Shown: positions 4,701-34,176, counted from the stretch's first letter. The stretch is DNA of 64,000 nt from Channa argus (GCF_033026475.1 NC_090210.1:20059894-20123893); one strand, 5' to 3'. A program made the numbers and translations. The notes: a model not told the origin generated them from the letters alone.

Positions 4701-7700
4701 GGATATTGGTCACACTGAAGGCGTTTCCAATGTGACACACAAAACGAATGCTATGAAGATAACCGCAAAAGACAGACCACAAAATAAAGCGGCACAGCTA
4801 ATCCTACTCTAATCATCATCATAACACACAAACATAACAATGACTAGGGGCTACTCTAACAACTTATAGAAACGGTAAGCTTTTTATTTTGTGTTTAAAA
4901 TTTGGTGAGTAATGGTGGTTTCAGATTTACCATGCAAATAAATAGTTTGCATAGGATAAATCCATTAGGATGCTACAGACACCTTCAGAGGATACACATG
5001 ACATTTTGCTGACTTTTTTCAAGCTTTCTTTCCTCGACTAATCTTAATTTTGAGGAGTTGCAATAATTTACTTTAAAATTAAAAGTCCAAAAGATGCTCT
5101 CTCCATTTTAATTTCATTTTTGATCTGACCTTGGTCTGTGTAAGAACAAACATTTTACGTGCAGATAATAGCAACTAGTTTAGCTTTTCAAAAAAAAAGT
5201 ACTTATGCTGGCAATGTAAACAGTATTACTAGTTGTCCGTGTCCAGCATCGCAATGAGCAATCTTCAGAAACTGTGAGAAATTCTCCTCCTTTGTGAACA
5301 ATTCCACGAACTGCACCACTGTGACCCCGAAAGGAGTTCAAGTGCTCCACCTGTACATAAAATACAGGGTGTGAGACAGGAGACAAAAGTAGAATAAATG
5401 AGTGTCAATGTTCACTCACTTCACGGACAATGAGACAGCAGATAAGTAACAATCACGTATTGGAGAGAACCCCACATAAAACTGAAGAGAGAATGTTAAT
5501 TGTGAATTAATTTAACACAAAAATGAATCGATCTGTGAGTGTGACAAAAGCATGAATAAAGATAAAGAGAGGTTAACATGGGTGATCTGGAAATATTGTA
5601 ATGAACTGAGAACAGACAGACCAGAAGCGGTTTCCAAATCCGCACTGTGCCGTCATCAGATGCAGTGAAAACAGTCATTTCTTCTGGATTGGTTGAAAGC
5701 ACAGCAATAAAGTATTATTACAAACATTAAGCTTGAGGACTTATTATTGTACAATATGGTAAACGACAGGGAGACAAAAAGAGTCCACTTGTGCCGTTTC
5801 CTCTACAGTACCTGTGTTTGGGTGGAGACAGCAGTGGTGTATCCGCTGCTTGTGGGCAGTGATGTGACAGATTTCTATGGAGGTTTCCCAGTTCCACACA
5901 TGTAGTGCTCCCTCTGCACAGCCAGCCACCACATACTGTCCCTGCACACAGAAACAACAACAGTTGACTCTTCGATAATTCGGGAACACAGCTAAATATT
6001 CATTTATCCACCTAAAGAGCTCATTTACCATAGTGTGATGACTATGTACACTGCATTATATCAATACACCTAAAGAAACCTTCTTACTAGGCAGCAGACT
6101 GAGGTAAGAGGACTCCTCCAGGAAATTTCCCTGTAATGCTGGCCTGACTGCAGGTCCCATAAACAAAGTCTTCCATCGACTGAAGCACTAATCTGGAAGA
6201 GAAAAGGTGGCTGAGAAAGTTTCTAGAGACACAAAAGTAAATGTAGTATGTTAATACTGCATGTCTCTGTGGGACAGACCTGTAGCTTTTTATTTTTAAT
6301 AAGTTTTATTTATGGCACTTGGGAAAAATACAACAATGACTCACGACACAGTCTGGAGTCCAAACACAGCCAGTGATCCATGCTCTGTGAGAGTGAAGGA
6401 GCGATTTAGAAAGAGCAGCAGGAGACGAACTCACATCCCACAGCATCAGGACCTGCAACAAATTCAGGTTTTTTTGTTAATCTAGTTGCACAGTGACAAG
6501 AATTCTACAACATGGGACACATGAGGTCCCATTAGAACTACTCGAACAAATGGATTTGCTCTTAACTGGCATGTACAAGCGATTTAAGGTGATTTATTGC
6601 ATTCGCCAATTTTCTCTTAGCTGCAAATGAAATTCTTGAGAGGCCTAGACCTTTCGAAAGTGACATGAACAGTCTGTCTTTCTCGGGGGGGGGGGATTAT
6701 GGTGGCTTTGTCTGAGAGAGTTTAAGTTTTAAATGTGATTCATTCTGTAGTTAAACTTGCAACTGAAAAAAAAGGTGCTGCCTTTCAGCTGGATATGGAG
6801 AAAAGCGCTCAGACTGACATAGTGTCCAGTGACTCTCTGCATAAGCCTTTCTATATTACATAATATTCTTTGTATATTAGTTTTATTAAGAAATTATCCC
6901 ACCTGATCTTTTCCTCCAGACAGTAACTGTCCACCATCAGGGCTGAAAGCCAGACAGGTGACTCCTCCACTGTGACCCCTCAGCAACGCATGTGGCTCAA
7001 TTGAAGAGTCAAGGGCCAGATCGCTCAACAACCACAAAGCAATAGTGAAGTCATCTAAATGAAAAGGTAAATATACAAAAGACATAATGTGACTGTACCG
7101 TTTTGTTTTTTATTTTTTAAACCAGATCAGGTTTTTAAGCCATACCCGAAGCTGTAGCCAGGTAAGTGGAGTTTTGTGCCAGTGCCAGGGTAGTTCCTAG
7201 TTGCACACCAAACATTCTCAGCATTTTCAGACTAGCCATCTTTCCCTCTACTTCTTTTCTCTTCCAGCACCTTAAATAATTGTCACTCCCTCCAGACACC
7301 AGCAGATCAGGTTCAGTCTGCTCTGGGTCCAAAACAACCCACAGCAGACACAGTATGGACACGTCAAGGTCACTGGACGCCCAAATCATGTCACCTATAG
7401 AGAGTTATAAAGAGAGATTTTGTTTACTAAATCTGAGTGTTACCTCTTCCGTTTTAGCACCGAATAAAGATATTGTATTATTCAACAATCAAAGATGTTT
7501 TGTTTCCTTTAAATCCCTAAATTACTGCATTTCTGCTCCACAATACAATACAAAAGCAACATATGAAATGCTATAGAATATAAATGTAGCTACTGTGTAC
7601 AGCTACAACTTCTGTAAAATATTACAGTTACAAAGCAAATGGTGGAAGTTTAGAATTTGAAGTCATGTCTTCTTAAACTGCCTTTAGCTGTCATCTGCAC

Positions 7701-7883
7701 ATCTCTACACTTTTTTAAAATATATGTTTCCAGTCAAGCAAACACACCTGAGTCAAGACTGAAGAGTTTGATGCCTTTAGCATGGTAACCCACAGAAGCA
7801 TAGTCTCCACTCACAGCCACACAGAGTGCGGCCGGATCAGAGAATACAGACTTTTTTAGAGGTGGATCCTGCTCTCTCACATA

Positions 7884-7944
<61 letters not shown>

Positions 7945-10900
7945 AACTAAACAACTGGAGCAATTTGAAAAAAAAAAAAGTCTGCTGTATCTTCATTATG
8001 GAAAAAACTAATTAACAACTAGCCTTTAAATATATATCATCTTATGTTAGATTGTAACTGAATCAAATGCGTCTCTTGAATACTGTATATGCAATTGCCA
8101 TGGCCAGCACCTTGTTTTTAGAAGAAATTACCACAATATCAAATTAGAATACCAACTTGTGCAGCTTGTAAAAATGTCTTTGTGTCTACAGTCTTTTTGT
8201 GGAATATGTGACCACTAGAAGGGATTAAAAAAAGAGTTAGCTGATGCCAGTGTATTATGTAAAAACTCAAAGATCGATATTGAACTTACATGATCACTTT
8301 TTAATGTCATGACTGAACGTCCAAGTTCTCCTGACCAGAGGTGGAGCTGTTTTATAGGAAACAAAATTACACTGATCAAAAATAAGACAGAGGATATGTC
8401 TTGCAGCAGCTAAAGAAATGCAACCTGCCAAAGTCAATTATGGTATATTTCTACACTGATGTCACTGAAACCATCCTGACCCGCTCCATCACTGTTTGCT
8501 ATGCTGCCTCCACCAACAAGGATAAGAACAGACTGTAGCATATCGTTCAGTTGGCTGATTGGCTGACAGTTGGTGTGATTGGCTGCAATTTGCCACTTCT
8601 GCATTTCTCTAGGACCCTGGACTAAAACTTTCAGAAAGACCCCCCTCTGGCAAAAGGCTGTGCTCTATCAAACCCTCACACCACAAAAACTGTTTCTTCT
8701 CGTCTGCTGCTGGCTGAACAAGGCCCAGGCCCCCCAAATAAAAAACTCACCATGTGATCCGATCCAGCGCTGAGCAGCATGGCTCCATCATCCAGGAAGG
8801 TGAGGGCCTCTATAGCTCCACAGTGAGCCTGGAAACATCGCACACAGGTGGAGGTGGGCACTGACCACATCCTGACCTCTCCAGACACAGAGCCAGAGCA
8901 GAGCATGGAGGAGGAGGAAGAGAAGCAGAGACTGCGCACTGAGCGCTGGTGACCACGCAGAGACTGAGGGAAAAGACGGAATAGTTTAACAATAAATGAT
9001 TTTAATTTGGAGAAGTAAGCATTCTATGCAAGTAACAATTCCTTTGATGTCTCCTCACTAAAACTCACTGTTAGAGATTTATTTTGCAGCCAGTTCCACA
9101 CAATCACATTTCCATCCCAGCAGCCAGCAGCCAGCAGATGACCCTTGGGGTCAAAGTTCGCACAGTTCAATGGGCTAGAGCTGGGCAATGCCGCTACCAC
9201 ATGACCCTTGGAAGAGGACCAGACCTGAAATACCAGAAAAGTATTTTGCAAATAAAATGAGAAATACTAAAATCAAACGGCTGAAGAACTAATACCAAAG
9301 TTTATTGTAATTTGTTGGAGACCAACTTTAAGCAAGAGGTCAAGAGAAACGGTTGCAAAGTGCTTTCGGTCTCCAGTGACATCACTTGCTGTTATCACAT
9401 GACTGTGGCCATCAATAAGAGCAGTCCTGCAACAGCACAAAACACAAGTCAGCTATTTAAAACGGTCTATGCTAGAGTATATCTGAGAAAGGCCAACAGG
9501 ATTCTGGGATTGTTACAAAGTCAGGTATTATGCAAAATTTCCTTCTAACACTTCTTTCACCTGCAGCTGTTCTTGATGTCCCAGATCTCTATCCTTCCAT
9601 CAAAGGAGGTGGAAGCAAGATGTCCATCGTTCAGAAAGACACAGCTTGAGATCCCGTCACAACTGCTCACCAGCGACCTCACTTCCTGAAAAATGCATAT
9701 TAGATATTTCTGCAGCTGTTTTTCTCATCACATTTATTAAGTGAACAGCCCATTTTCTCAAACATACTGGAATTGTATTTGTTTTACATACTGTGCAAAA
9801 CAATACAAAATACTGGGAGGACAGCAGAACAAAGATAAAGATTCATTATCTTTAACCTGGGAAGGCTAAAAATCAGATAGCTAACCTGATGCATTTATAC
9901 ATGGATTTTATATAAGAAGGCTGAAAGTGAGTTGTGTGTAAACAAGTAATGTCTGTTCAGGATTGCTACTCCTTCGCTCAATCTAGAAAACACAATTACA
10001 CACCACACACCATGTAAGCTATATGGTAAGGTAGGGTAAACTAATGATAAAGAACACAGAAAATCAGGAAGATATTTTTTTAGATTAATATGACAATAAC
10101 CATATGACAGTAAGTATATACCAAAATAAAACCCCAAATCCTGGAACTAAAGTTTGTTCATACTTGTCCTGTTTGTGTCTTGATGAAATGCAGCCTTCCC
10201 TGTCTAGTACCAACCACCATCAGCTCTCCATCAACGCTCAAAACCAAACAGGTTGGTTCAGACGAGAAGGTTGACACAAGTAAACTGTGATGAAACACAC
10301 AAGACTGTATATCAATTTCCAATCAAACACAAATATACCTTTTGCCAAAGTACAACCCCAATTCCTAAAAAGTTGGGAAAATGTGAAAACCTAAATAAAA
10401 TTGAATGCAATGATTTGAATGATGCAAATCTCATTAACCCATATTTTATTTACAATACAACATAAACAACATATCAGATGCTGAAACAGACATTTTACCA
10501 TTTCATGGAAAATATTGCCTTATTTTGAATTTGATGGCAGCAACACACCTCAGATCCCACATCTTGGAAGAGGGGCAACATGAGGCTGGAAAAATAATTG
10601 CCACAAATAAAAAACAAATGAAGGAGCATTTAACAACTAATTAGGTAGCTGGCAACAGGTCAGTAACATGACTGGGTATAAAAGGAGCATTTCAGAGAGG
10701 AAGAGCCTCTCAAATTTAAAGATTTAAAGGCAGAGAGGTTCACCAATCTGTGACAAACTGTGCCCAACAATTTCAGAAAAACGTTCCTCAACATAAAATT
10801 GCAAAGACTATGAAGATCCGACCATCTACAGTATATAATATCTTCAAAAGATTCAGAAAATCAGGATGAAGCTAGCTACAAGGTCAAGGTCAAAATTAAA

Positions 10901-13900
10901 TGCATGTGATCTTTGGGTCCTCAGTTGGCACTGCATTGAAAACATGGGAATGGGTTCAGGAACACTTCCAGATATCACTGTCTGTGAACACAGTTCACCA
11001 TACAATCAACAAATGTAAGTTAAAGCTGTAACTTTCAAAGAAGAAGACATATGTGAACATGATCTAGAAACTCTGCTGGGTTTCTGGGCCAAGTCTTATT
11101 TAAAATGGTCTGAGGCAAAATGGAAAACTCTTCTGTGGTCAGATGAATCAAAAATTGAAATTGTTTTTGGAAACCATGGACACCCTGTTCTGTGGACTAA
11201 AGAGGAGAGGGACCATCCAGCTTGTTAACAATGGACAGTTCAAAAGCTTTCATCTCTGATGGTATGGGGCTGTATTAGTGCCTATGGCGTGGGGGGCTTT
11301 CACATCTGGATTGGAACCATCAATGCTGAAATGTAAACAGTGGTTTTAGACTGGAGCAACATATGTTCCCATCCAGACAACGTCTTTTCAGGGAAGGACG
11401 ATGCTAAACCACATGCTGCATCCATCACAACAACATGGAGAGAAAAGGGGATGCTACACAATGGCAAACATCACCCTCTTCCAACTTTTTTGAGACGTGT
11501 TGCCATCAATTTTAAAATTAGCTCATATTTTCCATGAAATGGAAAAGTTTCTCAGTTTCAAGATCTGATATGTTGTTTATGTTCTACTATGAATAAAATA
11601 TGGGTTGATGAGATTTGCAAATCATTGCATTCTGTTCTTATTTATGTTTTATACATCTTCGCCAATGTTTTTGAAATTGGGGTTGTAATTTCCACTAACA
11701 CAAATTGAAGCTTACCACTATAAACCCACCCACCTTGGGTCTTGAACAGTCTGACTTTCACGGTTTAGCCACTCAACTACCTGGACCCCTCCATTTCCCA
11801 CTAGAGCTTGTGCCCACTTGTGAGCAGAGGTCTCTGGAAGCTCATTGAGGGCCTGCTGAATGAAAAGATCCGGCCAAGAAGAGAGCAAGGGGGCATATCG
11901 CTGCATGAAACTATGACAATCCTTCATACTGTCCTGAAAGTCAACTGTAAAGGCAAAAAAAAAAACTTGTAAGAACAATAAAACTTAAAATTGTGAGGAG
12001 CTTGTGGGTAAAATATTTTAAAGCACTTACTTGATGTTGCACACACATTCTTCTTATCTGAAGAAAAGGACAACATATACAGGATACAAAAATTAGTATT
12101 TGTTTTGATTTGCTACTTATCAAGGGGATGTTTTCCTGAGTCAACCTGCCTCTTCTTCAGTTTCAACTGAATATGAGCAAAAATTTGAAGAACTACAGGT
12201 AAATGATCTCAAAAGCAGCTAAACTATACAACGACATCATCACATTTATCATATAGTATCATTATGCAAACCCACCGTAGGTCTCCAGGAGGTGGTGCAG
12301 GAGGCCGTTGCGCACATTAGCATACAGGAAAAAGTAGCTTGAGAGCAGAGAATGAAGCAACTCCAGTTGGTCACTTAAGATCTAAACCAAAAATCAGAAA
12401 GACGATAAAACTGAGAAAGATCATCGGTAACTGTTAGTCTCTGAATGTGTCTGTATGAGGCATATTACATTTATTTTCCTGAATGAGCAATTTGTTTTCG
12501 GCTAAACACTCTAAACACTTAAGTTTGATTTAAGTTCACTGCAGCACTGTCTGTTTAAAATTTTATTAATTTATAATACACAATACACAAGATTCTATAA
12601 ATGTTGCTTGTCTGCTGTATTGCCAGAAGTGATTCATCTAGCTTTCAACCTTTGCCAAAGCACTGTTGTGATGAGTGGTGATAGATAATTACTTACCAGG
12701 CTAGAAGGCAGGTGCAAAACAGAGTTGGCCTCACCGTGAAAGAAGGTATCTTCTCCCTGGGGGTCTGCCCCCACCCAGAAATGAGCTGTTGAAGATCAAA
12801 TAACATATGGAACCACAGACTGTTTTAATGTGATATTTGACATCTTTGTAATGCAGAAAATTGACATTAGCTGGTAAACTTAGAACAAACATGTTTGCAG
12901 AGGATAGTAAGTTACACTAAGGTACATAAATTATCTTTAAGACACAATCATGCTACGCCTGTGTGTTTTATGCTCTTTTCCTATCCCGTTTTGTTTTCAT
13001 CTCTTCGAATCTTGTTTTAATGTTCTTGTTTAATTGAATAATGAAAGTGTGTTATTTGCCTCAGATTTGTGAGGTTTCTAATTCAAAACTAAAACAGGAA
13101 TTAAAAAACAATTTAAGAAAAGTGAGACAATGTGACTAAAACTAAAACACCTTTTACCTGCTAGTATGACATGAGCTCTGGTTCTGTCACTTTCCGCTGG
13201 GAGGAGAAAGTCTTCAAAGGCTTGTTTTACCACTGGATTGGTTAGAGCCAGCAGGTCATCAGTGCTGTGACAATGAGATGAGCCAACCAGACTGCAGGAA
13301 AATGTTCAAGGATGTTAATGCCCACACGGGTTCATGTCAGACATCATTTACAATGTATCTAAACAGACTGAAAAATATGAGTTTTTGTAATAAAAGTCAT
13401 ATCTTGACAATCAATTTCTGCTCTCATGAGATCCATACCTTTGTAAACTCTGCATTATACGGATAAATGTTGCCATGGGAACACGTCCTTCAGGATTCCT
13501 GGACAAGTGCAGCACTTCCTTCCATGACATTTGTCCATCCCGTGAGAATAGGTCATTGCATGTGTTCAGTAAAGAGTACAAGTCTCTCTTGCTGAGGGCT
13601 GTGGATGAAGAGGAGAAAATTTTGTGTACTATATTCAGTTCAGCACTTCAAGGCAAGTCTGCTGACCAGAAACACCAAAGCCAATCGAACAAGGGCCCTT
13701 AAAGGGCACTCGACAGACAACACTGTAGGAATAGTACAGTGTAGAGTGAAACCGAAAAAAAAAACAAAATAAGATTAATAACTACAGCCTAATAGTTGGG
13801 TTCCTTTATTGGCCCCCTTGGTAGTGTGGACTCTGGGTCATCCGCCCATGATACATATCTTACCAGTGGTGCTGACGGTGAACACTGCCAAAGCCCAGTG

Positions 13901-16900
13901 GAGTCCTGGAAAGTCCCTGTACTGGCAGCAGAGCCTGTTCAGGCTGTGCTGCAGCAACTGCTTCAGAGAGTGAGGCAAACTGTGGAGGTTCTCCTTCAAC
14001 TAAGACACAAAACAAAATCTGATGGAATCATTAATATGTTAAAAATGAAAGAATGTGAAAACTTTACTAAGCCATTGTAAAAAAATAAGGTTTGCTTCCT
14101 TGTACATGTTGAAAAATTCTGCTGTTGGGGGGTGAGCCAAACTGTGTACGAAAGGCCACCTATGGTTAATGCAGTCAACTCATTACCTACGTTATATCTT
14201 CCATCGTGTGGAGACAGTTGTAGGCAGTTAGGCCAGCTTGCTTCAATAGCGTTTTGAGAGAGAAGCTGACTGAATGACGAGTGATGCTGTGCATCTTAAT
14301 TAGCTGCCACTCGGGCTTGGCGTAACAGTACGTGTATAAATGCATTTATGAATACACAAGGGGCCACATCCCAAGAGAAACATGACAACTCTCATCAGAA
14401 AGTGGCTAAAAAGGTCACATCTGACCTTGTCAAACGAAGCAAAGTTCCTCAGGTCTTCACAGGCCAGGTGCAGGTAGAGAGGACTCCCTGCTCCATTCTT
14501 CATTATCAGTGTCTGCAGCTGGCCAAGCACAGCATGGTTTTAGGAGAAGAATTAGAGTCCAAATGTGTCAATGACAGCATAGTACACAGAGCTGCAGCAG
14601 AAAATGGAAAAAAATTATTTCTATGATACAAAACATAAGAAGCACCTGGTTGGCAAACGCAGAAGTACTTAGCTTCTTCCCAAAGATGTCCAGTCCCCTT
14701 TGAGCTATCTCTTTCCGGTCTGTCTCTGTAAGCTGTCCCAAAGTAAAAAGGACTGTGCGTCTCCTCTTGGCCAGGGTTTGCAACAGAGCTGTTTTAGATG
14801 TGACGCTCACAACCAAACACACACCCTAACAGAAAAACAGAAACTCATTTTATTCTAGAAATGTTTGAAGACTATACCTTAAGCAGTTAGTGTGTGTAAA
14901 TGTACTGTAGATTAATGGATGTTGCCTTTTAAATATGCACCTGCACCTCACTTTATAATAGAGTTGCATGATATTTGAAAGAATCAACATTAAAATATGT
15001 TTTCTCTTTTACATATTGGCAGAGGTTGCAAAAGTACAGAAGTAGGAGTACAGAAAAAACACAACAAAAAAACAGACTCTCTTGTATTGATTCCACTTCT
15101 TAAGTAAATTGAAAAAGTACAGGCTCTAAAATCTAACTTAGGTATAAAAGTAAAGAGTATATACAGTATACTGTAGTTTTAAATCACCTTTCAATCTCTG
15201 TGGCATGGCTACCTGCAGTTAGTGCCCGTTTTGGTAAAATATGTCACTACTACGTCAGTGAAGATTTTCAGCCACCTGGTAAAATTTGATAATATCCCAT
15301 ACTTTATGGATGTTGTTTGTGAACTTTTGAAGTATAAGGTGTTGGTGGAGTTGACACAGATAGGGTTTTGGAGAGCTGCTACCCTCCTAAAATCTTGAGT
15401 TTGTTTCAATTCACTACTTAGTTTGGGGAGAAAATATATATATATAGCTAGACCATAGAGATCAACACCTGTACGAAGACACTTGGAAATATTGACTGTT
15501 CCTGTCAGCAGAGACCAGCCATATAATGACAACAAAAACAAATCAAATCAAATCAATAATTTCCCTCAAAGGCATTAAAAAAATGTAACAAGCCTGTTTT
15601 TAAAATGTAAGAAGTAGAAAGTATAGATATTTGTATCAGAATGTAGGGAATAAAAGTAAAAAGCTGACAATAAAAAATACTAAAGTACAGATACCTTAAA
15701 TTCCAACAGTATTTTTACAACATTGCATCACCAGATAACTCGATTAGAAATACATAGCATAGAAATACACTCCTTGTTTCTGTTGCATTCTGTTTTTCTC
15801 TCCCCCCTTCTGTCTCCTTCCCTCTTCATTAATTTTATGAAATATATAACGTCTCTTTAAAATTCTATACAAACAAGCAGCCGTCAATCTGTCCTGAACT
15901 CTTTCATCACTCCATGTCAGTGTGGCCCGCCTAAGGGTACTTGTGTTTTAATCCCCGTGCAACACAAGTGGGTAGCAGATGAATGATCGCTCCATGTTAT
16001 CAGGATACAGTCGGGATGTAACGTTCCAAAGAAAAGCACTCTTAGATAATATGTAAATGAGACTGAAAAAGGCCAGGAAGATTTCATTACTAATGATAAA
16101 TGAGAACTGGGCTTGTTTTCCTTATGTACTTAGCAACAGAAAACTTTTATCATACATGTTGGGATTATTATGCCTAACTCGATATTGCACATCCTGCAAT
16201 GGGACTATTGTGCACACACCAATCGGAATGACGATGCTGGAACAATATATTGTGCAGCCCAACTACAAAAACTTTCCTTTAGTTTTCTACCCATGTGACC
16301 GACCTGTGGAAGCTGCCGTGGTATCCAGTCAGAGCTGAGCTGACCTGGGCCATCTCGGATAAGTTCCACCCCATCAACTAGCAGCACCAGAGGTCTGTTC
16401 TTCTTCGTGTCACTCAACGTTGAGTGAAATTCTGACAGTAAATCTCTGAGATTAAAATATAATTTTAGTCCATAATTAACATGACCTCCGAATCCTGACT
16501 ATTTGGATGACAACTGAAAATCTAATTACTTGTAAGAGTGGGGAAGAGGTGATTCCTTCTCAGCAACATTCATCTTCCTGAACCACTGAATGACGCAGCA
16601 AAGAAGGTTCCCCACAGAGCGAGCTGATTGGCTGGCAGCTGCAGAGTATGAGATGACATCACACACCAGGTTTCTCTTCGACTTGACTCCAGTCCTGAGG
16701 GCGTCGGCCAGAGCGGCCTGAGTGGAGACAGATAAATGTGAGTAGCATAATATTTTTTAGCAATTATGCAAATAGAGCTAAAGCAACTGATCAATCAAAA
16801 TCAAAATCAAAATCAATCAGCTAATAACAGAGAAATAATCTGCATATTTGAAACTTTATAAATCATAGTTATGTATAAAGTTCAAGTATTTCAAGTACAA

Positions 16901-19900
16901 ATGCCAAAATTCCAACAACATTCCTCCACTGGGTGATATTAATGTTGTGGCCGATACGTGTATGTATATGGCAGCAACAAAGTCATAAAAAAACGGTTAA
17001 AAAAATGTCATGTAAAAATTCATTTAGAGACATGTTCAGGGCTCTTTTGACAGTTCATTATTTTTAATAAACACATCTTACCAATAATCTCTGCTGCACA
17101 ACAGTAGTTACGGCTGTGTTTCACGTCTAATAGCTTTTATAGCAACTCTAGCACTTCAGAGACCATCACAAATTCAATCTTTTAAGGCAGAAACCCTGAA
17201 TCTATGGGGATAATTTACCATGAAGACAGTTTTGCCTTCTCCAGGTCCTCCCTCCACCAAGACCATCCCTCCTTCGACCTGGACCTGCTCCACCAGCTCC
17301 ACAGCCCCAGACATCAGCTTCGCCCTGCCGAGGAACTGTTGGTGCAGCGCCCTGTGGTGAACCTCCTGCTCAGTCACATCTGCTACAGCCTCAACCATGT
17401 CATCCTCCTGGCAGTCAGAGAATCAGGACTTTTAACTAACAAAACCTATTCTGAGTGTAACAGACGGCGAACAAAATGGCTTGGAGCTGACTTTGTTTAC
17501 TTAAGAGTTTAGCAAATGAAACATTAGTGTAACGAACTTCCACAAACAGCTTCACAACAGCCGCCCAAAGATCTTCCAGCACAGCCTTGCCAAAGTCGTC
17601 CAGGTTTTTCAGATATGGCTTCCCATCCAAAACATGTCCCCACTCACATGGGTAACTAGGGCAAAAAAAAAAACACACCGTAAACCAGACGTGCAGATTT
17701 AGGTAAAAATGTAATTGAAGTGACTTGTTATTGTGAACTGAAGAGAATTTGAATGTGTAATTTTCAAAAAATAAATTTTTTTTTTTAAATCAATGCAGCA
17801 AAATAGATCTAGGAATAGACTTTTTTTTTAGCTGCAATCCAAACTTAGTGAATAGTATTTTAAAGTAATGGTCCGTGTTTTTTTTATACTGGTCTTAAGA
17901 CAATATTGAGGCGCTTATATGTACGTAACAATAGGTTTTTAGTTGCTACCCGTGCTCTGCAAAAATGCTGAGATTCACCTGGAAAGCGACACTGTAAACA
18001 AAAATTGGGGCCACAATGCACATAGTAGAAACATTTGTCATCAAGACGTACTGCCACGTACACATAAGCACAGAAAATTTATATTAAGACCAGCTTAAAG
18101 ATTCCAAAATAGTATCACAAACTGTTTAGAAGACTGACTCACTTCTCAGTAACCTTAACATCACTGGCCCAGATCCTACTTTTCAGAGATGCCATTTTTG
18201 ACGCAGCGTCCTGTGATTCAGGGACAAACTCTGATTTCCAGGCCACTGGAACTGATCTGACAAACAGAAAAAACAGATAAAGAAATTGAGACATAAAGAA
18301 AGTACAAGGGATAGACCTAATAGAAATTGTGATGTGTGAATATAACCACGGACAGCCTACTTGGTTATGTTTGGATCTCTGAAGTAGCAGAACATTCGCT
18401 GGCGAGCTGTGTCTGGGTAAAGAGCCTGAAACTGACGGATCTCCATCTCTGTGATCGACAGACCAGGTGGAGCCGATGCCAGCTATACATGAAGAACAAA
18501 GAGGGAAACTTAGCATTTCTGTCAACTCCAATTGCAAAAAAATAGCTTTAAACTGTTGCTGTAAAATGAATTTGAAGTTTAGTTGTTATGTCTCCTTTAT
18601 GGACATTGAGGTCTAATATAAATATTAAAAAAAAAACACATGGGAGATGTGCAGGCTATGTACATGTCCCAGCTATAAATACCATGTAATAATCTACTGT
18701 GGTTGTGTTGAATCTTCTTGAAGGGACCTGGTGTTTATCACAAATTAATTGCTCAGTGGAATATGATATATGCTTCAATTCTGTACTTAGGTTGCAGGAA
18801 TAAAAGGGGGTAAGTACAGTTTGTATTATTGGGGTTTGTGAACTCGCCTGTGTCTCAAGAGTCTAAGTGCAGACAGACTGCGTAAGGTAGAGGGCCCTCT
18901 GTTTGTAGATGATCTTCCACTCTTTAGTGTAGGTCACAGGAGCTAGAAAGCTACATTCTCCCAGAGAAAAATGGGACATGCTGCTATTAGTCCTGCAGGC
19001 ACTGACAAAGTCACCCACTGAACTTGTGCCAAGAGGAACCCTCATAAATATTTTAATTAGGACAACTTTTCTGCTGGCAATTAAAACAGAGAAGATGTGA
19101 GTGAACTGGCCAAATGTTAGATTTTATCTGGTATCATGCCAGCGGTGTGGCTACATCCTGGACAGCCATGGGAGGGGGACAACTATTACCAAATGCTGCA
19201 GCAGCATTCTGGGCAGCTCTGGGCTCCAAACACCAGCCCAAATAGTTAATCATGAAATATCCCCTAGACCTGAATAACCAAAACTAATGAATGAATGAAT
19301 GGACTGGAAGATAACCCTATTAAAAACATACAATTAACATTTAAAATAAGGTTTTTAATTACCTTGGTGAACTCTGCTTATTCCATTTTTTTTACCTACG
19401 TATTTGTTTTCAAAATTTTTAATTCAACCCTCTTGAAAATAGAAAACAATGTACAATGATGCATGAGCATTGTTCTTTAACAGGATATAGTTTTTGACAA
19501 CTTAACCAATTTTAATCTTCAAATCATTGAAAAACAAAAGCGCTATCTCAGCTCTACTTATTCATTTTGTCATTTTTGTAGTATAATACCAGGTCTTACC
19601 CAGCTGTACTGTGGCAGGTCAGGTAGAAAAGGTTTGGGGAGCTCTGGGCCATACCTCTCCCCCAGGATTCCAACCATCATCTGGCTGGAACAAACCTCTG
19701 ACAGGCAAAGGTTAGTGGCTCGGTCCAACTCCACCTCTGTCAAACCCCAGCGCAGCTCCACCTCCTGCAGATACAGGCAGTGTGACGCAGCACGGCGACG
19801 AAGCTCAGGGAAAACACTCCGTGCCAACACGTCCCGCTCAGCATACATGTCTCCGAAGGTGGAGGAGATGAAAACTCGCACACACTGCCACCTGGAGACA

Positions 19901-22900
19901 GAAGGAGCTGATGTTGATTGAGAAAAGATGCCAGGGCTTGCCACTAACGCTTGACCTGGGTAAAAGTAAACTGCCTTATGCAGAATGGGCAGGTGAAAAA
20001 GTCTTTTCCAGACATTGATTTATGTGTGTTCCCCGATAAAAATTGGTTAAAATTGTATTTTACTGTAGAGCTTCACGCAGCATATTTGATCTTTAAGTGT
20101 CCACAATCTCTGAGTTCAGATGAACCAGAGACCAAGCCATTTTATTTTTAATTTGATGCTGTCCTAGTATTAATTAAACGTGGATCCATGCTACAGACGA
20201 AGTGTTCAAACTTGTTTTAACAAGGTATAGAAAAAGTGTCAACATATACACACAGTTCTTCAAACCTCCCACACTAGTTTCTGACATCCGTGATAATGAT
20301 AATGAATGATTATTCACAGGACTCTTACTCTCATTGGTGTCATGTCAATGTTTTAAGCTGCAAAACAAATTTTTGAATCAGGCCCTTCAGTATTTCGTTT
20401 AATTAGTTTGTTAAATATTAGGTGTAAAGTCAGGCAACAGATGTTATTGTAATGTGTTAGATACACATTTAATTAACATGTAATTGTTGTTAGAAATACA
20501 GACTACAATGATTCCATAATTTATTTGTTGTTCACATCTGTAGACAAATGCAGTATTTTGAGTATCAAACCATAATCGTTAAGTCACAGTCCTACATTTT
20601 TAGGACCCTCAATTTTAGGTTTTGTATATTAATAAAATGTAATGGTCAAAATTCCTGTTATTTTGTTTATCATTTAATAGTTCTAAATTTTTGGTTTTAA
20701 ACAAGTAAAGGATCCGTTACCTACCCGGACTAAAAAGCTTAATGTAAAGCCCTGGATGCATTTTTTTGTTTTGATATTAGAAAGAACACATGCAGACATA
20801 TAAGATTTTCAGTTTAAAGTTTTTATTCTTTTTGCAAAAATTACCTTAATTTTGGGCTGGATGGTATTGGGATGACATCATCTAAAGTCGGACGGTCTTT
20901 AGCTGACACTGGTGGTGGGATGTTGTACACTTTGTCCAAGTGCTCCACATGGTCCAGTAGTCTGGGAGATCCACGTGCTGCCACCACCCTGATCACATAA
21001 ACATACATTTTTCTGATTTGTTGGAAAAGGCTGAAAAGCGCCAATCTCTAATCCATAAAATAAATATGATAGCATAACAATGTAGACTGTAAAGTTAAAC
21101 TGTCTCTGCTCTAAGCTGACACCTGACAGAATGTCTGAAGTTAATTCAACGGACATGACAAGGCTCACAATTTTCTAGTTTTCTGCATAAATTGGGTGAT
21201 GAAATGTGATCTGATTTTCCCCAAAGTCGTAAATATCAACAAACACAATATTTCTAAGCTGAAAAAACATAACAGCCATGCTCTTTCATGCCTTTATTGA
21301 ACACACATAATGAAAAGTGGACTGAGCTTAAAATTCCTACATTTGTATAAAAGGTTTTTACCTCAGCATTTGTTCACTGAATTCTGTCAACTTCACACAG
21401 TTTCTGTCAGTCGGGTTCGGGTCCGGGAAATTGTCCCTGTAACAATACAACAGTATATGCATTCAGGATTAGAATAGCAGATGCTGATATTAACACAGTC
21501 TGAGATTTATCACTTAACAGGTCCAATAGGTTTTTTTACAGGGACATTTTTCATCAATCAAAAAAAAAAATACATAAAAAATAATATATGTGGCCAGTCA
21601 CTACTGTTATCAGTATCAGATTTCCAATACTGTCTGAGAACCAGATATAAAAGCATATAAGAAGAGAAAAATAAAAAACTACCAGTCGTTCATGTAGAGG
21701 TGCATCACGAGGGTTTGGTTGTTTATTTTGTTCACGTAGGTCTCAACGGCCCACCTAACATCTTGACTGATGAACATGCAAGCATTTGTCACCAAAATGA
21801 TGTTGTCCACCTAAGATACAAAAGTATACAGTTTGGTCATCTGATAGATGGGAATGACGAACTGCATGCCAGATCCACTAAGGGCTTCGAAAAAAAACAA
21901 CAACAACAATACGGCAGTGCCCTTTCAAGACCACAATTGAAATTTTTTTTTCATACACTCATTTCACATTTTTGTTTCTTCTAATGATAACAGATCAGTT
22001 GTACTTCCTGAATGTCCATTGTTAGTACACTAGGTTTGGGATCAAGTTTGCGTCCCCTTACAATTCAACTGTGTGTAGGTTGATGCAAACTTACCCCTGA
22101 GTAGTAGAGTAGATTAATTTGTGCCTCAGATCACTGTCTTGTTAAAGGATCAACTGCCTTCTAACTTTTTTGCTTTTAAATCTTACGATGTCGGGCTCCG
22201 TTCATTCTTTCTTCCTCTTCCTACAGAGCTCCAGCTGCCACACGTACCAGTGCAAATTATGACCAAATAATTCTACTTTGGTCTCATTAGAGCACACAAT
22301 CATGTTCCAAATCAGATTTGGTTCTTAATCACATAATCCTTAGTACTGTATACTCTAAGCATCTGCCTTATGTCTAAAAGTGCTTTTTTCTCCCTAGCGT
22401 TCCAGAGTTGTGCAGACTATGTTTTCACTGTGGAGATGTGAAAGCAAACTGACCCTGGAGGACTACCCCACTTTAAAGTGCATTTATTTACACGCCTGCT
22501 GCCACCAAACCAAAGGGGATGCAAACTTTTGCACTGATATAACTTTCATAATTTCACTTTTTAAACACTCCTCGGCCATTTTTGTTTATTCTGTCGATGA
22601 AGGAACATTTGTACTAGCTGAACATATTGTTGATGTGCTGAAATGCCATTTGTTTCTATCTTTTTACCATTTCAGTGTAAGCGGATGCAAACTTTTTCCA
22701 CTCCACTCTAGATCCCTTTGACATGTTTGGGAGCAAGAGAGTAATTTCCACTATTTCACTCAACTGTACATACAGCATATAAAAATAAACTAACCTTGTT
22801 TTTCTCGGTCAATAGTCTGAAGAAGGTTTTGCTGTGATCCACATATGAATACTTCTTCTTCTGTATATGCACCTGTGAAAGAAAAGCATTCAAACTTCTT

Positions 22901-25900
22901 TCAAAGCATGGAGCTCAGAAATAAAGATGAAAACAAAACAATAACTTGTAAACAAAACACGGATACAATACTACAGGATAGAAAAAACTCCAGACCTTTA
23001 CTCGCTTCATGACACTTCTGACATTTTCCAAAAGGACATCAGATGTCAACTTGATTTCTTCCATACGTTTCCAATTGTGCAAAAACATGTGACAATCTTC
23101 AGCACTGCTGCCAATCATCAGAGAGAGCAAAACGGGTAACTTCATCGTCTGAAGAAATATAAAGGGAGAGGTTAGCTTAGTTATGATCATTCGTTCAGAT
23201 ACACTATACGCCATATAAGTGTTATCGCAAATCAAAAGAAAACAGAATCTTACATCCTCCTCCTCTTTTTTTGTCCACCCTCTTCTCTTTTGCCTTTTTT
23301 CTTCCTTGTCTTCCTGATTATTTCCCTGCGTTGTTTGGTCTGGCGGAAGGTAAAACTTTGGTTTCGGGTCCAAGGGCATCTTGATCCTGTAGAACACGAT
23401 AATGGTTCGTCCAGGGAGGGGTGGCACGTTGTAATCACAGGAGATCTGCACAGCGGTCTCCAGAGCTTTGCGGTAACGATCCAGTAGATCAACCGTGTAC
23501 AGCCGCCTACTGGTTGCACAGATAGAGTAACAATTACATTACAGGATGGAACATGTTTTCTGGTAATCCAAGCTGAAGTCACTTTGTCTAGTGTATTGTT
23601 CGAAATGATCGTACATCAGCAGGTTTGTACTGTCTTTGCAATCCTTTAATGACTCCTACTGTATGACTTTCAAACTAAAAATATGACTTCATATGTCACT
23701 TCATACAAATGCTCTGACATAGTGAGCACTTGAACAGTCAAGTGCCCCAAAGGCAGATGATCTTTGCATAGCTCTAGACATGTTCAAACTAATATTTACA
23801 CGGTATTACCAAGATACTGCTATGCGCAGGGTCACATTATTGACAAAATGTCATGTACCATATACAATCAGACAAGACAAACAAGAACAAACCCAATACA
23901 TTTGGAAAAAATGAAATGTTGGACTAGTTAAACTATAACGATGATCCACGCTACAAACCAATTGCAACACAAGTACATATACCTATTATTATTAATATTC
24001 CATTGATCAACATCATTGATTGATTTCGTGTGTTGCTCAAATCTGCAGAGATGTTGTGTTATTCACAGATATCTGCTGCACTTTGCTTGATGGGTTTTGT
24101 TGTTCTGCTTTAAAATCCACTTCTTGAGACAAAGGAGCCTTCTTGAGCCAATTGTTATTGACAGTATTTTGGTTTGCATTCAGAGTGATGTCCATAAATG
24201 CCATGTCTATAATGCCTATACCTTTTGGCTCATATCAGCATGCTTCCACCTTCATGTTTAATATTTGGCAAGGTGGTGGTTTCTAGCAAGGTACATGCCA
24301 ATCAATCATCAAATACTTCATAAAATTATTGTAGGTCATCTTTACATTTCTCTGAGCAGGGCTCTGGGTGCACTAGCTTCTGTAAAGTAAGTGGCTGGAA
24401 TTGGGCAGTTTGAGGGGTTTAGAGTCTTGCCCAGATATATTTATCTACCAACTGACCCCCATCTTTGCACTGCATACTCTCTGGTATTAAAGAGGACTTA
24501 AACGTCTGAGATTTCAAACACTTCAGAAAACCTAAAGTCCGATCAAATTTAAGAAATAAAAGTGAAAAACCAGCATCAGCAACATTTTCATACTCGGCCT
24601 TTAGCATCTGGGCCTTCTTCATTTTGTACAACCGATAGATAAACGGGACCCCCAGCGTCGCCCTTATCCTCCTCGGCTTGGTCTTTTCCCAGAACACACG
24701 ACTGAAGCGTCTGCTCTTGGGAATCTTTTTCAGGATGCCCTTCAGGATATCTTTAACAGTGGGAAGTGCTTGTTGTGATGTCGAGGCTGAAAGACAAAGA
24801 GTAATCTCAATTAGATTGCTTTATTTTCGTGATATCTCTACATAGGCCTGGCCCCCTGCCTATTTAGACCCAGCTCTCCCCATAGTTCCCTCCCAGATCC
24901 TTGTATTTTCTCCCTGACTGAACACCCTGCCTTCTGGTTGCCGTCTTACTTAGACTGCTGACTCTTGTTATTTGGACTCTGTTTGCCTGCACCTTTTGGT
25001 CTAAGCTTTGGTAGTTGTGTTCCTCATTTAGCTCCATATGCACAGTTAGTTTACTCTTATTAGAATTCTACATTTGTTTTGGATATTCACACACTTCACT
25101 TTACACCTGTTCCTAGTCTTCCCTGGGACATGCACTTTTGTATATGACCTGGTAAGTTAGTGCCCACTTTTAAGTAACTGTTTTAACTGGTTTGCATGTG
25201 TTCTTTTGTCTGTGCTCTATTTTGATAATCCTTTACTTATCCTCAGTTATTTCTGGTCCCCTTTTCTGTTTAGTTTTCCCCTGATTGGTTTTTATGTATG
25301 CATTTTATATTATTACCTTCTACGACCAAGTCAGCTTTATGTTCTTTTATAAAGCTGTTGGTCTTGTCCAAGCTACTCAATGGAGTTTTAAAAGGCACTT
25401 ATGAACTTACTCAGGTCATTACTTTATGAAACCATTATCACCTTCCTTTTAGGTCAAATACTTTGCCAAGTACTGTACATGTATCTCACTCAAAGTTTGA
25501 AGCTCCATGATGACTTTATAGGCCATAAGGAATGTGAAGGGAAACTGCCGGCTCTCTATAACTTCTTTCTGTGAGCACATCAAAATCAGAGGTCAAGTAC
25601 TTGATGCACCCTGGTTCAAGAGTTAATATTACAAATGTGACTACTTAAAAAAATAAAATCATTAGTATATAAATTTGTATTTTTTTTTAAAGTAGTAAAT
25701 AACTAATCTTACCTTGTTGGCCAATCTGCTGAGGATCTTGTTGTGATGAGTCTCACTAATGCCCATAGATATTATGTTCCTCAGGTTCCTCAGCATGGCC
25801 ATGAAAGGAAGACATTCATTGTCTGTACAAAGACATAAACCATATGCGATTATGTATTCAATGAGGATTCAGAGTCGCCTTGTTACCACTCGTAAACCAC

Positions 25901-28900
25901 CTTCTCAGAAGCCTGTTGAAATGCTGTGTTGATCCACCAGCTGCAATAGTGGTTGGTGTTAGGATACTGCAAAGCATGTGATGATCTGAACTTTCTGCAT
26001 TGTGAACAATAATGCTACATGAATCCAGTTTCAGGTCTGTGTGTCCTGACAGTGGGCTACACACACCAGCAGAACAGGCGAAGGTGGTGAAGGTGTGTTC
26101 ATGTTTATTTGGGCTTTAGAATGTAATCGCAGAGAAAGCATCAGAAAATAATGCTTTATGTCTCGCTCACTGAGTCAGGGAGAAGGGGGCAACTGAGCAG
26201 TGCCAGTTTCAGTCTAATCATTTCACATGTACTAGTACATGTAGAACACATTAAATGTCCACAAGACTGTAACTTTTAGTGAGACATCTGCGGGTGTGCA
26301 GCGGTAACTTCATCAACCTGAACGTCATTTGACTAAACAACCTCACAAACAGCAGAAGTGGTGCTCAGCCGCCATCATCCCTGTGGAAGCACTGTGATGA
26401 ACCTATTCCATCGTTGGAAGCATGTCATGTAGTTATGCTGTCACTGTAGAAACAATTGTTACAACTGTCTCGTGTTTTTGTTTGAATCAGACCTATGATC
26501 TTCTCCCAGGTGGCAGCATTGTTGCCCTTTCGGCTGAGCAGGTGTTCCCACGTTTCTGGTTCTTTGAGCATCATTCTCTGCCCAGCTCTCTCCTTGTCCC
26601 ACACACCCTTCATTCCACTGTGGTTGAATGCTGTCAGATCAGCAGGATACCTGCAATAAACCCAACCACAACGCAACCATTGGATAAAGCCAAACACTGC
26701 ACAATAGCAAAGATGAAGGGTAAATAGTTTGCACTTATATTTTCTACCCTTTGGAAAAAAAAGCTTTACACTGCTCCTCATTCACCCATTAGCACTCACA
26801 ATCACACACACTCATACACCGATGGGGGAGCTGCTATGCAGCTGGCCAACACTCACCGGGAGCAACTAACTTCGGGTTCAGTGTCTTGCTCAAGGAGACT
26901 TTGACATGTGATCAGAGGAGCCGGTGGATCGAACCAACAACTGCAGGATTGTTGGACGATCGCTCTACCTTCCTGTGCCACAGTCGACCCACAGATAACA
27001 GGTGTATAACCAGGCCTATTTTTCTAGCATCTCTATTCCTTTGTCTGTTAATCTACATTTCTACTGGCTAAAGAACTAAATGCTGACTAAATGTTAACAG
27101 TAATAAAAAGTACAGTTCTTATTGTGTAAATTCTTTTCTTTAAAATTTGAGTAATGTAAGACCTGTGTAAGACTTTTTATTAGATAGATGGAAAAGAAAG
27201 TATTTCCAGTTCCTAGAAAGACATTGTATTGCGTCAAATTACATTCATTTTAAATAGTCGGGCCAAAACATTAAAATCACCCCTAATATAATGAACTATG
27301 ACTCCACCATCCACTATGACCTCAATGATAAACACATAAATTATCACCTTTCTGTTTAAAACATGACTTTTAAAATAGAATACATGGCAGAGCTGCTGTA
27401 TTGGATGGCATTTGATTGCACAGGTGTAATTAATAACGTGTTCAGTAAATGTACTTCTCCCTGTGTGTCCCTGTGTATCTTACTTTTGTCCCAGAATGGC
27501 CATGACATGTTCGGCCGGTTCTTTAATATGGAGTCTCTTAATCATCTTCTTCATAGTGAAATCACTCTTTTCATCCACCCCAACGTTGCCGTCTTTTATC
27601 TGCATCTGAAGACGTATGTAAACCAATTTTCCCAGCAGTTTGTTTCTTAAAAATTACATCTTAAAATTCAATCTTAAGACTAACAATCACAGCAGGGATA
27701 GATATAAACTATAATTAGCTCTACTACATTAAAGTACGTATAAAAATGGAAAAGTACAAAGACTTACAAAATTCTTTACGACAGAGTCATCTGCTCTGAT
27801 CAAGTCTGCCCACTGTTTCAGCTGCTGTTTATTTGGTTTCTAGAAATCAAAGAGAATATGCAAAGAGTATAAACGTCTTATTAGATTATGTATTTACTAA
27901 AGCTTAATTGACAGTACTTAAAAAGTACTAAAAAAGAAAGCACAGAAGCACAAAACGTTTTTTATCTTTTTTCATCCAGGGCAGTTTTTGTGTGTTTCAA
28001 TTGTGAGTGTTATCAGTAATACTGAGAATTGTTTATTGTCTGTTAGTAACAGGGGTGTAGGGTTATTTTAACTTTCTGATTTCCTAGTTTGAAAATGCAC
28101 ACGCGAGGGATTTAATTTAAAATCCAACACAATACACAAATCTTTTGTACTTTTACCCTATATACAGTACAGGATTTATTTTTTACACATTTTTGGTGAC
28201 GGATACCATCACCGTAGATACTATATACAAACCTTTACAAATCATCATCATCCACCATAAAGATACTTTTCATTTTAGTTATTACACTTGATGTCATTTA
28301 TGTAAAATCTAATGGATTATATAGTTGATCCATAAATATCTGTAAACTGCAATGTTAGATTTGTTTTTCAAAGTGATGTAATAAAATTTATTTTAAAAAA
28401 AAGCCAGAATATTTAGGTTAAAATAATAAAGAATTTGTTTACACATATTGAGGAATCTATATTCAACTGTTTTATTTAATGATGGGTTATAATAAAAAAT
28501 GCATTTAGTTGAAAATATTGTGAATTATTGACTGTAATGTCATACTCTGCATCTATGGTTACTGGATTTGTTAACACTTTTGTATTAAAGTGAAATTCTA
28601 TTTTGTAAATACAATTTTGAAGAAAAAGGTGATCATAAACGTTGTCTATGGACCAGACCACAATCCTGACAGATTCATTGCATTGTACAAAGGAAACAGC
28701 CACAAACATCACCCTAATGACGGCAAAACCTCTGTTATGCATAAAGCAGTACGTATTGTTAATATAAAGACCAAAAAGACCAAATTAAAATCTTCTGTAC
28801 CTTGCTTTTGCGACTGTATTCACACTGCTGTTTTCGTGTGTTATATTTTGCCAGTTGATGCTCGCTGAACTGTTTGAACTTGTCAGCCATTGCCTTCTTC

Positions 28901-34119: not shown

Positions 34120-34133
34120 CTAATAGGGGAGGG

Positions 34134-34176
<43 letters not shown>

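Follow-up and report, generated by a model that had tools for sequence, protein, structure and literature searches.

Tandem TEP1 paralogues of Channa argus with intact NACHT NTPase motifs and a predicted impairment of the NADase domain in one copy

Introduction

TEP1 is a vault- and telomerase-associated STAND protein, which combines a TROVE/vWA RNA-binding region, a TeTIR NADase domain, a NACHT NTPase and WD40 propellers. The protein has lately been recast as a STAND protein with a TIR-like domain that cleaves NAD+ inside vaults, it was reported to be interferon-induced, and NADase activity was found to be weak or absent in several of the proteins NWD1, NWD2, NPHP3, and TTC41 (bioRxiv 10.64898/2026.09.21.753143, 10.64898/2026.05.01.722283). 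These four are ancient paralogues without TROVE, in which TeTIR immediately precedes a NACHT NTPase whose P-loop is intact, and they provide a precedent for a NADase-silent yet conserved STAND protein. Animal NLRs such as NLRP3 and NLRC4 share the STAND P-loop fold, but their repeats are LRRs, whereas TEP1 has WD40 repeats and a TIR-like NADase effector; the sensor-1 Arg of the NLRs is absent from the TEP1 clade, in which the Gly of GxP is not conserved. Plant TNLs resemble TEP1 in having a TIR-type NADase effector, a STAND NTPase, and C-terminal repeats, but contain NB-ARC rather than NACHT and no TROVE RNA-binding module. TNL genes are often tandem duplicates.

The window analysed here, a stretch of 64 kb, contained two TEP1 paralogues side by side, both on the minus strand (copies A and B). 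Both shared the domain order of vertebrate TEP1 (human Q99973), namely TROVE, vWA-like/DUF5920, TeTIR (DUF4062), NACHT, and TEP1-type WD40 propellers. The retrieved vertebrate orthologues were represented by one sequence per species, in contrast to the two tandem copies of this locus. Copy B differed from vertebrate TEP1 in having WCWG where LRWG is invariant and in an altered TROVE motif, and copy A in R908G and a 5-residue C-terminal extension. The arrangement of TeTIR and the intact P-loop matched that of the NWD1, NWD2, NPHP3, and TTC41 proteins; however, the collected homologues keep LRWG, unlike copy B, and the NADase loss predicted here would be recent and inside the TEP1 clade. Among the structure and profile matches to animal NLRs were NLRC4 and the NLRP3 NACHT structures 7alv and 9gu4, and the plant TNL WRR4A (9qlv) was among the fold matches.

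Organization and identity of the two copies

The gene models were obtained by a joint two-copy DP with 48 exons common to copies A and B, and the features are listed in Table 1. Two additional upstream TROVE exons of copy A (29767-29600 and 29181-28810) were located by tblastn with an orthologue. The coding sequence of copy A stopped after ...YFLSWRQFREGL, and copy B ended at the ancestral stop (...YFLSWKE, then stop). The two loci were collinear, exon for exon, over ~26 kb. All 48 modelled exons had canonical GT-AG sites and equal intron phases in both copies, and no stops were seen. The NTPase modules likewise showed canonical splice sites and matched phases with no stops or indels, and a nucleotide-level frame test detected no indels between the copies in exons 12-24. 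Exon pairs 5, 6, 7, 8, 10, 32, 40, and 45 of the 48 gave noisy indel alignments, and are divergent or have uncertain boundaries. The nucleotide identity of exons was 63-96%, the introns were mostly unalignable, pS was typically 0.3-0.6, and the proteins were 70% identical.

The best protein matches of both copies were teleost TEP1 or TROVE-domain proteins, and the protein identity with teleost TEP1s was 55-78%. The assignment of both genes as TEP1 paralogues with a NACHT NTPase was supported by Pfam domains. TROVE (PF05731) was detected with E-values of 8e-66 in copy A and 6e-62 in copy B, the N-terminal half of the latter lying beyond the window edge, and the propellers Beta-prop_TEP1_2nd (PF25047) and Beta-prop_TEP1_C (PF25048) with E-values of 1.5e-75 and 2.7e-33 in copy A and 3.7e-77 and 1.5e-35 in copy B, respectively. 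The copies covered 713 (A) and 729 (B) of the 732 residues of the orthologous WD40 region. NACHT (PF05729, gathering cut-off 26.7 bits) scored 28.5 bits for the NTPase fragment of copy A (E = 1.6e-06), 40.1 bits for that of copy B (E = 4.2e-10), and 53.5 bits for the draft protein of copy B (E = 3.3e-14).

Table 1. Coordinates of the TEP1 copies and their motifs, counted from the first letter of the window
Feature	Coordinates	Strand	Remarks
TEP1 copy A	1585..29767	-	at least 50 exons; spans the N-terminal TROVE exons through the stop codon
TEP1 copy B	34003..63767	-	48 modelled exons; 5' end past the window edge
Copy A Walker A / P-loop GGPGEGKT	17228..17251	-	exon 17404-17219
Copy B Walker A / P-loop GEPGEGKT	54341..54364	-	exon 54517-54332
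Copy A Walker B LVLLVDGVE	16364..16390	-	exon 16445-16304
Copy B Walker B RVLLIDGVD	53414..53440	-	exon 53495-53354
Copy A Walker B peptide string LVLLVDGVELIRD	16352-16390	-	
Copy B Walker B peptide string RVLLIDGVDLVQD	53402-53440	-	
Copy A strand beta4 / sensor-1 position CLVVSVTSKT	14790..14819	-	family-typical Ser, no Arg
Copy B strand beta4 / sensor-1 position CLVVSVTSKA	52832..52861	-	
Copy A GxP-like motif GAGSPLYLHLACEDL	14450..14494	-	
Copy B GxP-like motif GAVSPLYLHIACEDL	52453..52497	-	
Copy A TeTIR motif STFGDMYAERD	19831..19863	-	human R908 to Gly (GGA, 19852-19854), H911 to Tyr, R914 kept
Copy B TeTIR loop VEWCWGVTE	56014..56040	-	human L941 to Trp, R942 to Cys
Copy A catalytic Glu region SITEMEIRQF	18429..18458	-	human E1008 kept
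Copy B catalytic Glu region SIQEMEIRQF	55572..55601	-	human E1008 kept
Copy B TROVE motif SFSLTDMLSNLRN, rewritten (SLPFMAMLRNLRN in orthologues)	60941..60979	-	

Age of the duplication and selective constraint

In an NJ tree, copies A and B were sisters in 95 of 100 bootstraps, with the climbing perch Anabas next, and both were placed inside percomorph TEP1 on branches that were long relative to Anabas. The duplication is lineage-specific, and with a dS of ~0.43 between the copies it is old. Comparison of copy A with copy B gave an overall dN/dS of 0.43 and a value of 0.32 for the nucleotide-binding domain of NACHT, with values below 1 in every domain. Both copies are under purifying selection, a pairwise value of 0.43 not denoting strong constraint. 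Substitutions specific to copy A and to copy B were equal within noise for 17 of 19 outgroups. The earlier note had described the NTPase motifs as canonical and neither copy as obviously decayed, a description that agreed with the splice sites, the reading frames, the Pfam NACHT matches, the dN/dS values, and the symmetric rates.

TeTIR and TROVE domains

The TeTIR domain was encoded by exons 12-15, and its residues were numbered after the human TEP1 TIR structure (PDB code 11gz), to which the alignment had an E-value of 4.6e-63. Residues F902, S905, R914, C959, and R976 were kept in both copies, and the catalytic glutamate was contained in TEMEI of copy A and QEMEI of copy B, which aligned to TEMEV of the human structure. 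The sequence LRWG was present in 147 of 147 relatives and in copy A, whereas copy B had WCWG. This sequence was three base changes away from the conserved one, with TGG TGC in copy B (56029-56034) against CTG CGC in copy A. Neither an independent sequence of this species nor an orthologue of copy B containing WCWG or GEPGEGKT was returned by database searches, in which the best match was 89% identical. The R908 position was occupied by Arg in 130 of 145 relatives, in every vertebrate TEP1 examined, and in copy B, and by Gly in copy A.

In human TEP1, the R942A mutant was inactive and the R908A mutant was partly active; the R908 position was described as poorly conserved in the wider family, and the residues changed here were catalytic or substrate-binding ones (bioRxiv 10.64898/2026.09.21.753143, 10.64898/2026.05.01.722283). 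Because the RWG-loop Arg that all relatives have (human R942) was replaced and the human R942A mutant was inactive, the NADase of copy B is predicted to be dead or strongly impaired beside an intact NTPase, the effect of Cys in the fish protein being extrapolated from the human Ala mutant. The R908G change of copy A falls at a position where the alanine mutant was only partly active. The functional divergence of the copies most likely lies outside the NTPase.

The conserved TROVE motif of copy B was rewritten by seven point substitutions, all of which were non-synonymous, with no indels. A compensated frameshift was considered as the origin of this cluster and rejected, since the changes consisted of point substitutions only.

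It could be proposed that both copies, as STAND sensors of an immune type, are subject to diversifying selection, and that the changes in TeTIR and TROVE were adaptive and did not abolish function. The sensor-effector architecture of TEP1 and its reported induction by interferon would fit such selection, as would the long branches of both copies and the clustered, wholly non-synonymous TROVE substitutions of copy B. However, dN/dS exceeded 1 in no domain in the pairwise comparison of the two copies, and the changed TeTIR residues were catalytic or substrate-binding instead of surface residues. Diversifying selection was judged unlikely.

Copy B also had the most changes at otherwise invariant sites among the teleost sequences compared, with 8.8% (14/159) against 5.0% in copy A and a median of ~2% in teleost orthologues. 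Together with the missing RWG arginine and the altered TROVE motif, this would suit a young or incipient pseudogene, copy B being the likelier one, in which the NTPase motifs are intact for want of time. A lesion might lie in the seven or eight of 48 exon pairs that were poorly modelled or very divergent, and the 5' end of copy B is past the window edge. Against this, an unconstrained coding sequence of ~6.8 kb at a dS of ~0.43 should bear many stops or frameshifts, and none was found across the 48 exons. The splice sites were intact in both copies, dN/dS was below 1 in each domain, the substitution rates were symmetric with no acceleration in copy B, and copy B kept the ancestral stop codon. 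Incipient decay of one copy was regarded as improbable, and an impaired NADase in an otherwise constrained copy B is the preferred reading.

NACHT nucleotide-binding module

All four Walker A and Walker B strings given by the earlier note were found exactly, on the minus strand. The motifs of copy A lay inside the interval 16200-17410 to which that note had assigned them, and those of copy B lay ~37 kb from them, outside it. The Walker A and Walker B motifs were located in separate exons in both copies, and all four exons were bounded by AG and GT. Chance was not an issue across ~26 kb of collinear exons. An error in base calling, which the earlier note had named as a refuting explanation for the motifs, is formally possible, but WCWG would take three base changes.

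Both P-loops conformed to GxxxxGK[ST], in which G1, G4, G6, and K7 were invariant in the family alignment, and that of copy B kept G1, G4, G6, K7, and T8. In the Walker B motif of both copies, a hydrophobic strand led to the nearly invariant Asp, which was followed by an acidic residue, and copy B had a unique Leu-to-Arg change at the first position of the strand. The sensor-1 Arg after strand beta4 was absent in every TEP1 orthologue compared and in copies A and B, both of which had the family-typical LVVSVTS. Its absence therefore characterises the TEP1 clade as a whole and does not mark a loss in copy A or copy B. In the GxP-like motif, both copies kept the Pro and the LYL after it. The GxP Gly position, two residues before this Pro, was Gly in copy A and Val in copy B and varied among family members (V, A, L, R, F, D, and E), Val being the common state and Gly the unusual one. 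Loss of the sensor-1 Arg or of the GxP motif in one copy, which had been put forward as evidence against an intact NTPase, was thus inapplicable to TEP1.

A structural model was used for the tuatara orthologue, standing in for copies A and B. In this AF2 model, which has the natural P-loop GESGQGKT, the NACHT module had pLDDT values above 90 and the P-loop sat between strand beta1 and helix alpha1. A sequence-profile search of the PDB, started from the nucleotide-binding domain, yielded mostly generic P-loop matches (midasin, ORC, and Clp), with NLRC4 at an E-value of ~0.01. Foldseek with a multi-domain model gave generic AAA+/STAND matches (NLRP3, MalT, ORC, and p97) with poor TM-scores, which were non-discriminating. 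Searching the literature for Walker A strings of NLRs gave no result.

Both copies retain a complete NACHT nucleotide switch, comprising the Walker A Lys and Thr, the Walker B Asp and acidic residue, the beta4 Ser, xSPLYL, and the winged-helix region. Both could still bind and hydrolyse nucleotide, and this step would lead to the conformational or oligomerisation change by which STAND proteins control the effector domain.

The Gly-to-Glu difference at P-loop position 2 of copy B had been singled out as a non-conservative change. In the proposed check of the ancestral residue, Gly was ancestral among close relatives, since most percomorph TEP1s had GGPGEGKT. Within TEP1, however, G, N, A, V, Q, P, and E all occurred at this position. 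Among 123 TeTIR-NACHT homologues, Glu was the commonest residue (61), followed by Gly (19) and Asp (17), and GEPGSGKS, GEPGCGKS, and GEPGGGKT were all present. The view of this change as noteworthy is not supported, because position 2 is a free 'x' of GxxxxGK[ST] and Glu is the commonest residue in the 123 relatives; it reads as a neutral shift to the commonest family state.

An altered nucleotide affinity or hydrolysis in copy B, and with it a divergence of NTPase function between the paralogues, would agree with the derived state of Glu relative to percomorph TEP1 and with the accompanying Arg that opens the Walker B strand. This was considered very improbable, as the position is unconstrained with GEPG-type loops occurring naturally, the tuatara TEP1 itself has Glu there, the AAA modules of midasin contain GETGTGKT and GETGCGKT, and all the invariant P-loop residues were retained.

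Discussion

The locus is probably explained by a lineage-specific duplication of TEP1 in which both NTPases stayed intact and the copies diverged elsewhere, with a predicted impairment of the copy B NADase. An assembly artefact (uncollapsed haplotypes or a mis-join), to which the tandem layout and the near-identical exon structure might point, can be practically dismissed because the divergence of exons, introns, and proteins between the copies was far above allelic.

More tentatively, copy B may be expressed with an intact NTPase and a dead NADase, and could regulate the NADase-competent copy, serve as its decoy, or partner with it. Copy B keeps the STAND switch and the WD40 sensor, lacks the RWG-loop arginine, and has the RNA-binding motif of TROVE remodelled, and its role would resemble that of sensor/helper or catalytically silent proteins in immune STAND families. 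If this is true, copy B would represent a natural separation-of-function allele for the NTPase role of TEP1 apart from NAD+ cleavage.

For a duplicated gene, keeping the P-loop motifs while a free position changes is routine, and the value of this observation is that of a pointer. The two old and constrained copies form a natural experiment, in which copy B is without the RWG Arg and copy A without R908. With this pair, the parts that NTPase activity, RNA binding, and NAD+ cleavage play in TEP1 could be easier to tell apart, and the locus adds to the examples of immune-like STAND families that have expanded in tandem.

Tandem TEP1 Paralogues and Gene Models

The window is eukaryotic, with a GC content of ~38% and short ORFs only. 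A self-comparison joined 1.6–27.8 kb to 34.0–63.8 kb through ~40 collinear blocks of 67–94% nucleotide identity, between which the introns were unalignable; a many-exon gene is thus duplicated in tandem. The two TEP1 paralogues, copy A and copy B, were modelled by a dynamic program over exon pairs, which was scored by global peptide alignment of copy A with copy B and demanded AG/GT sites, the same intron phases in both copies, and frames without stops. The model contained 48 exons common to both copies, and the donor site after ...QLPQ was set by the divergence point of fragments from other species. Exons 12–26, containing the TIR-like NADase (TeTIR) and NACHT module, had canonical splice sites throughout in both copies, and nucleotide comparison of exons 12–24 revealed no indel between them.

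Judged by Pfam matches to TROVE, Beta-prop_TEP1_2nd, Beta-prop_TEP1_C, and many WD40 families, both drafts carry the TEP1 architecture. The NACHT family matched the draft of copy B and the NTPase fragments of both copies. Orthologue proteins covered 713 and 729 of the 732 residues of the WD40 region and 325 and 354 of the 380 residues of the vWA region in copies A and B, respectively, and stops in the orthologue matches were confined to HSPs running through short introns. The earlier note regarded neither copy as an obvious decayed duplicate, a view that was borne out as far as sequence can show. Exon pairs 5, 6, 7, 8, 10, 32, 40, and 45 (seven or eight) were very divergent or poorly modelled, and could therefore hide a lesion. 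Copy B ended at the ancestral stop after ...YFLSWKE (34003–34023), the same ending as in the Dissostichus orthologue. In copy A, the ancestral stop codon was gone and five more codons led to ...YFLSWRQFREGL and a new stop (1585–1620).

A ~200-bp inverted repeat of 80% identity (10347–10542 and 11498–11691) in an intron region of copy A, for which no counterpart was found in copy B, may derive from a transposon or MITE. A ~270-bp block of 75% identity lay in opposite orientation in matching 5' introns of the two copies (26720–26989 and 62444–62700), representing a local inversion or else repeats that were inserted independently. A (GT/TG)n dinucleotide microsatellite adjoined a WD40 exon in a copy A intron at about 7885–7945.

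Features of the two TEP1 paralogues (positions in the window)
Feature	Copy	Position	Strand	Remark
Upstream TROVE exons	A	29767-29600, 29181-28810	minus	copy B equivalents beyond the window edge
TROVE motif, SLPFMAMLRNLRN to SFSLTDMLSNLRN	B	60941-60979	minus	copy A counterpart 25776-25814
STFGDMY, STFRDMH in others (R908G + H911Y)	A	19831-19863	minus	TeTIR alignment
EWCWG, ELRWG in others (L941W + R942C)	B	56014-56040	minus	TeTIR alignment
Walker A, GGPGEGKT	A	17228-17251	minus	exact string match
Walker A, GEPGEGKT	B	54341-54364	minus	exact string match
Walker B, LVLLVDGVELIRD	A	16352-16390	minus	exact string match
Walker B, RVLLIDGVDLVQD	B	53402-53440	minus	exact string match
Low-pS exons	A	17655-17538, 8963-8751, 7054-6903, 5941-5812, 2578-2474	minus	each with a copy B partner

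NTPase Motifs

The four Walker A and Walker B strings quoted in the earlier note were all recovered exactly. When both copies were aligned with 26 relatives, P-loop position 2 was Gly in most percomorphs, Asn in cyprinids, Ala in piranha and several fishes, Val in a turtle, and Gln in two invertebrate-like sequences; the tuatara TEP1 has GESGQGKT, with Glu at this position. Among 123 TeTIR-NACHT proteins, position 2 was occupied by Glu (61 proteins), Gly (19), Asp (17), or another residue (26); positions 1, 4, 6, and 7 were essentially invariant. GEPGSGKS, GEPGCGKS, and GEPGGGKT are natural P-loops of these proteins. Since Gly prevails in percomorphs and Glu in the family, the Glu of copy B is derived with respect to its close relatives, yet it is the commonest family state. 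The significance that had been attached to the Gly-to-Glu change was therefore not upheld. The AAA modules of midasin (GETGTGKT) extend this to P-loop ATPases at large.

Walker B was intact in both copies, and the DGVE of copy A and the DGVD of copy B were each found in orthologues. The hydrophobic strand before Walker B began with a Leu-to-Arg change in copy B (53438–53440; KPRVLLIDG versus KPLVLLVDG in all orthologues), which no orthologue shared. Loss of the sensor-1 Arg or the GxP motif in one copy had been proposed as evidence against intact NTPases, but the Arg and the GxP Gly are not features of this family. The sensor-1 position read LV[VL]S[IV]xx, without Arg, in every TEP1 aligned; its Ser had a conservation of ≥90% across the family alignment, and both copies had LVVSVTS. 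Conservation of the GxP motif was limited to the Pro and the following LYL, with V, A, L, R, F, D, or E two residues before the Pro in relatives; at this position the Val of copy B was typical and the Gly of copy A was the outlier.

An AlphaFold2 model of a tuatara fragment with the natural Glu, built from a 58-sequence alignment, had a mean pLDDT of 80, with values above 90 across the NACHT module. In this model, the P-loop was located between strand β1 (548–553) and helix α1 (559–572), and the Walker B Asp654 closed the strand 647–654. The Foldseek matches of the model were STAND/AAA+ NTPases, among them the NACHT domain of NLRP3, MalT, ORC, and WRR4A, a plant TNL, and they were not discriminating.

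Divergence in the TeTIR and TROVE Domains

The sequence comparison suggests that the real divergence of the copies lies outside the NTPase, in TeTIR and in the TROVE domain of copy B. The DUF4062 domain of TEP1, directly upstream of NACHT, is a TIR-like NADase; in human TEP1 the mutants E1008A, F902A, R914A, R942A, C959A, and R976A are inactive, R908A is partly active, and W943A is mildly affected (bioRxiv 10.64898/2026.09.21.753143, 10.64898/2026.05.01.722283). The human TIR-domain structure 11gz matched copy B with E=4.6e-63, and residues were numbered by counting positions along the 11gz chain aligned to copy B. F902, S905, R914, C959, R976, and the catalytic Glu were retained in both copies.

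At positions 941–942, copy B had the codons TGG TGC versus CTG CGC in copy A; a database search recovered no independent sequence of this species. In a search that left both residues ahead of WG free, LRWG was present in all 147 homologues, which ranged from bacteria to tuatara. Position 908 was Arg in 130 of 145 homologues and in every vertebrate TEP1 examined, and dozens more fish exon fragments had canonical TeTIR residues only. When the human Ala-mutant phenotypes are extrapolated to Cys and Gly in the fish, a catalytically dead or strongly impaired TeTIR is predicted for copy B and one attenuated at most for copy A.

The TROVE motif, which is conserved in orthologues, differed in copy B by seven clustered point substitutions, all non-synonymous and without an indel, which suggests altered RNA binding, local relaxation, or positive selection.

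Duplication and Selection

In a word-indexed database search, the copy A module matched teleost TEP1 and TROVE-domain proteins with identities up to 72–78%, as well as TEP1 of tuatara, turtle, and amphioxus. The nearest non-animal relatives were ~100 prokaryotic DUF4062-NACHT-TPR proteins, many annotated 'nephrocystin-3', with 27–35% identity across ~70% of the module and a GE[SP]G-type P-loop in nearly all. A distance tree of 21 sequences joined the copies as sisters in 95 of 100 bootstraps, with Anabas testudineus as sister to the pair and long branches for both copies; the duplication is therefore confined to a lineage near Anabantiformes.

The proteins shared 70% pairwise identity, and the Nei–Gojobori dS, dN, and dN/dS were 0.43, 0.19, and 0.43 overall, with dN/dS values of 0.32 in the NACHT nucleotide-binding domain, 0.31 in TeTIR, and 0.51 in WD40. 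Uncollapsed haplotypes were ruled out by this protein identity and dS. Three-way counts with 19 outgroup TEP1s gave as many substitutions specific to copy A as to copy B, with chi-square < 3.84 for 17 of the 19; the nominal deviations, with Scophthalmus and Lates, both gave more change in copy A. By these counts, neither copy evolves faster. Of 159 sites at which 19 orthologues all agree, 8 were changed in copy A and 14 in copy B (teleost median ~2%), and errors in the database outgroup gene models add noise to these and the rate counts. The pS per exon was 0.06–0.62; five exons had values of 0.06–0.13, much below the 0.3–0.6 found elsewhere in the gene. Local gene conversion between the copies or synonymous-site constraint may explain these low values.

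Functional Interpretation

The STAND nucleotide switch and the WD40 region are present in both paralogues. By analogy to other STAND proteins, the NACHT domain would control the neighbouring effector by converting its nucleotide state into a conformational or oligomeric change, which is also the literature view of TEP1 (bioRxiv 10.64898/2026.09.21.753143, 10.64898/2026.05.01.722283). This effector would be attenuated at most in copy A and dead or strongly impaired in copy B, in which RNA binding by TROVE may also be altered. The divergence of the copies may represent subfunctionalisation, a role of copy B as regulator or decoy, adaptive change, or early decay.
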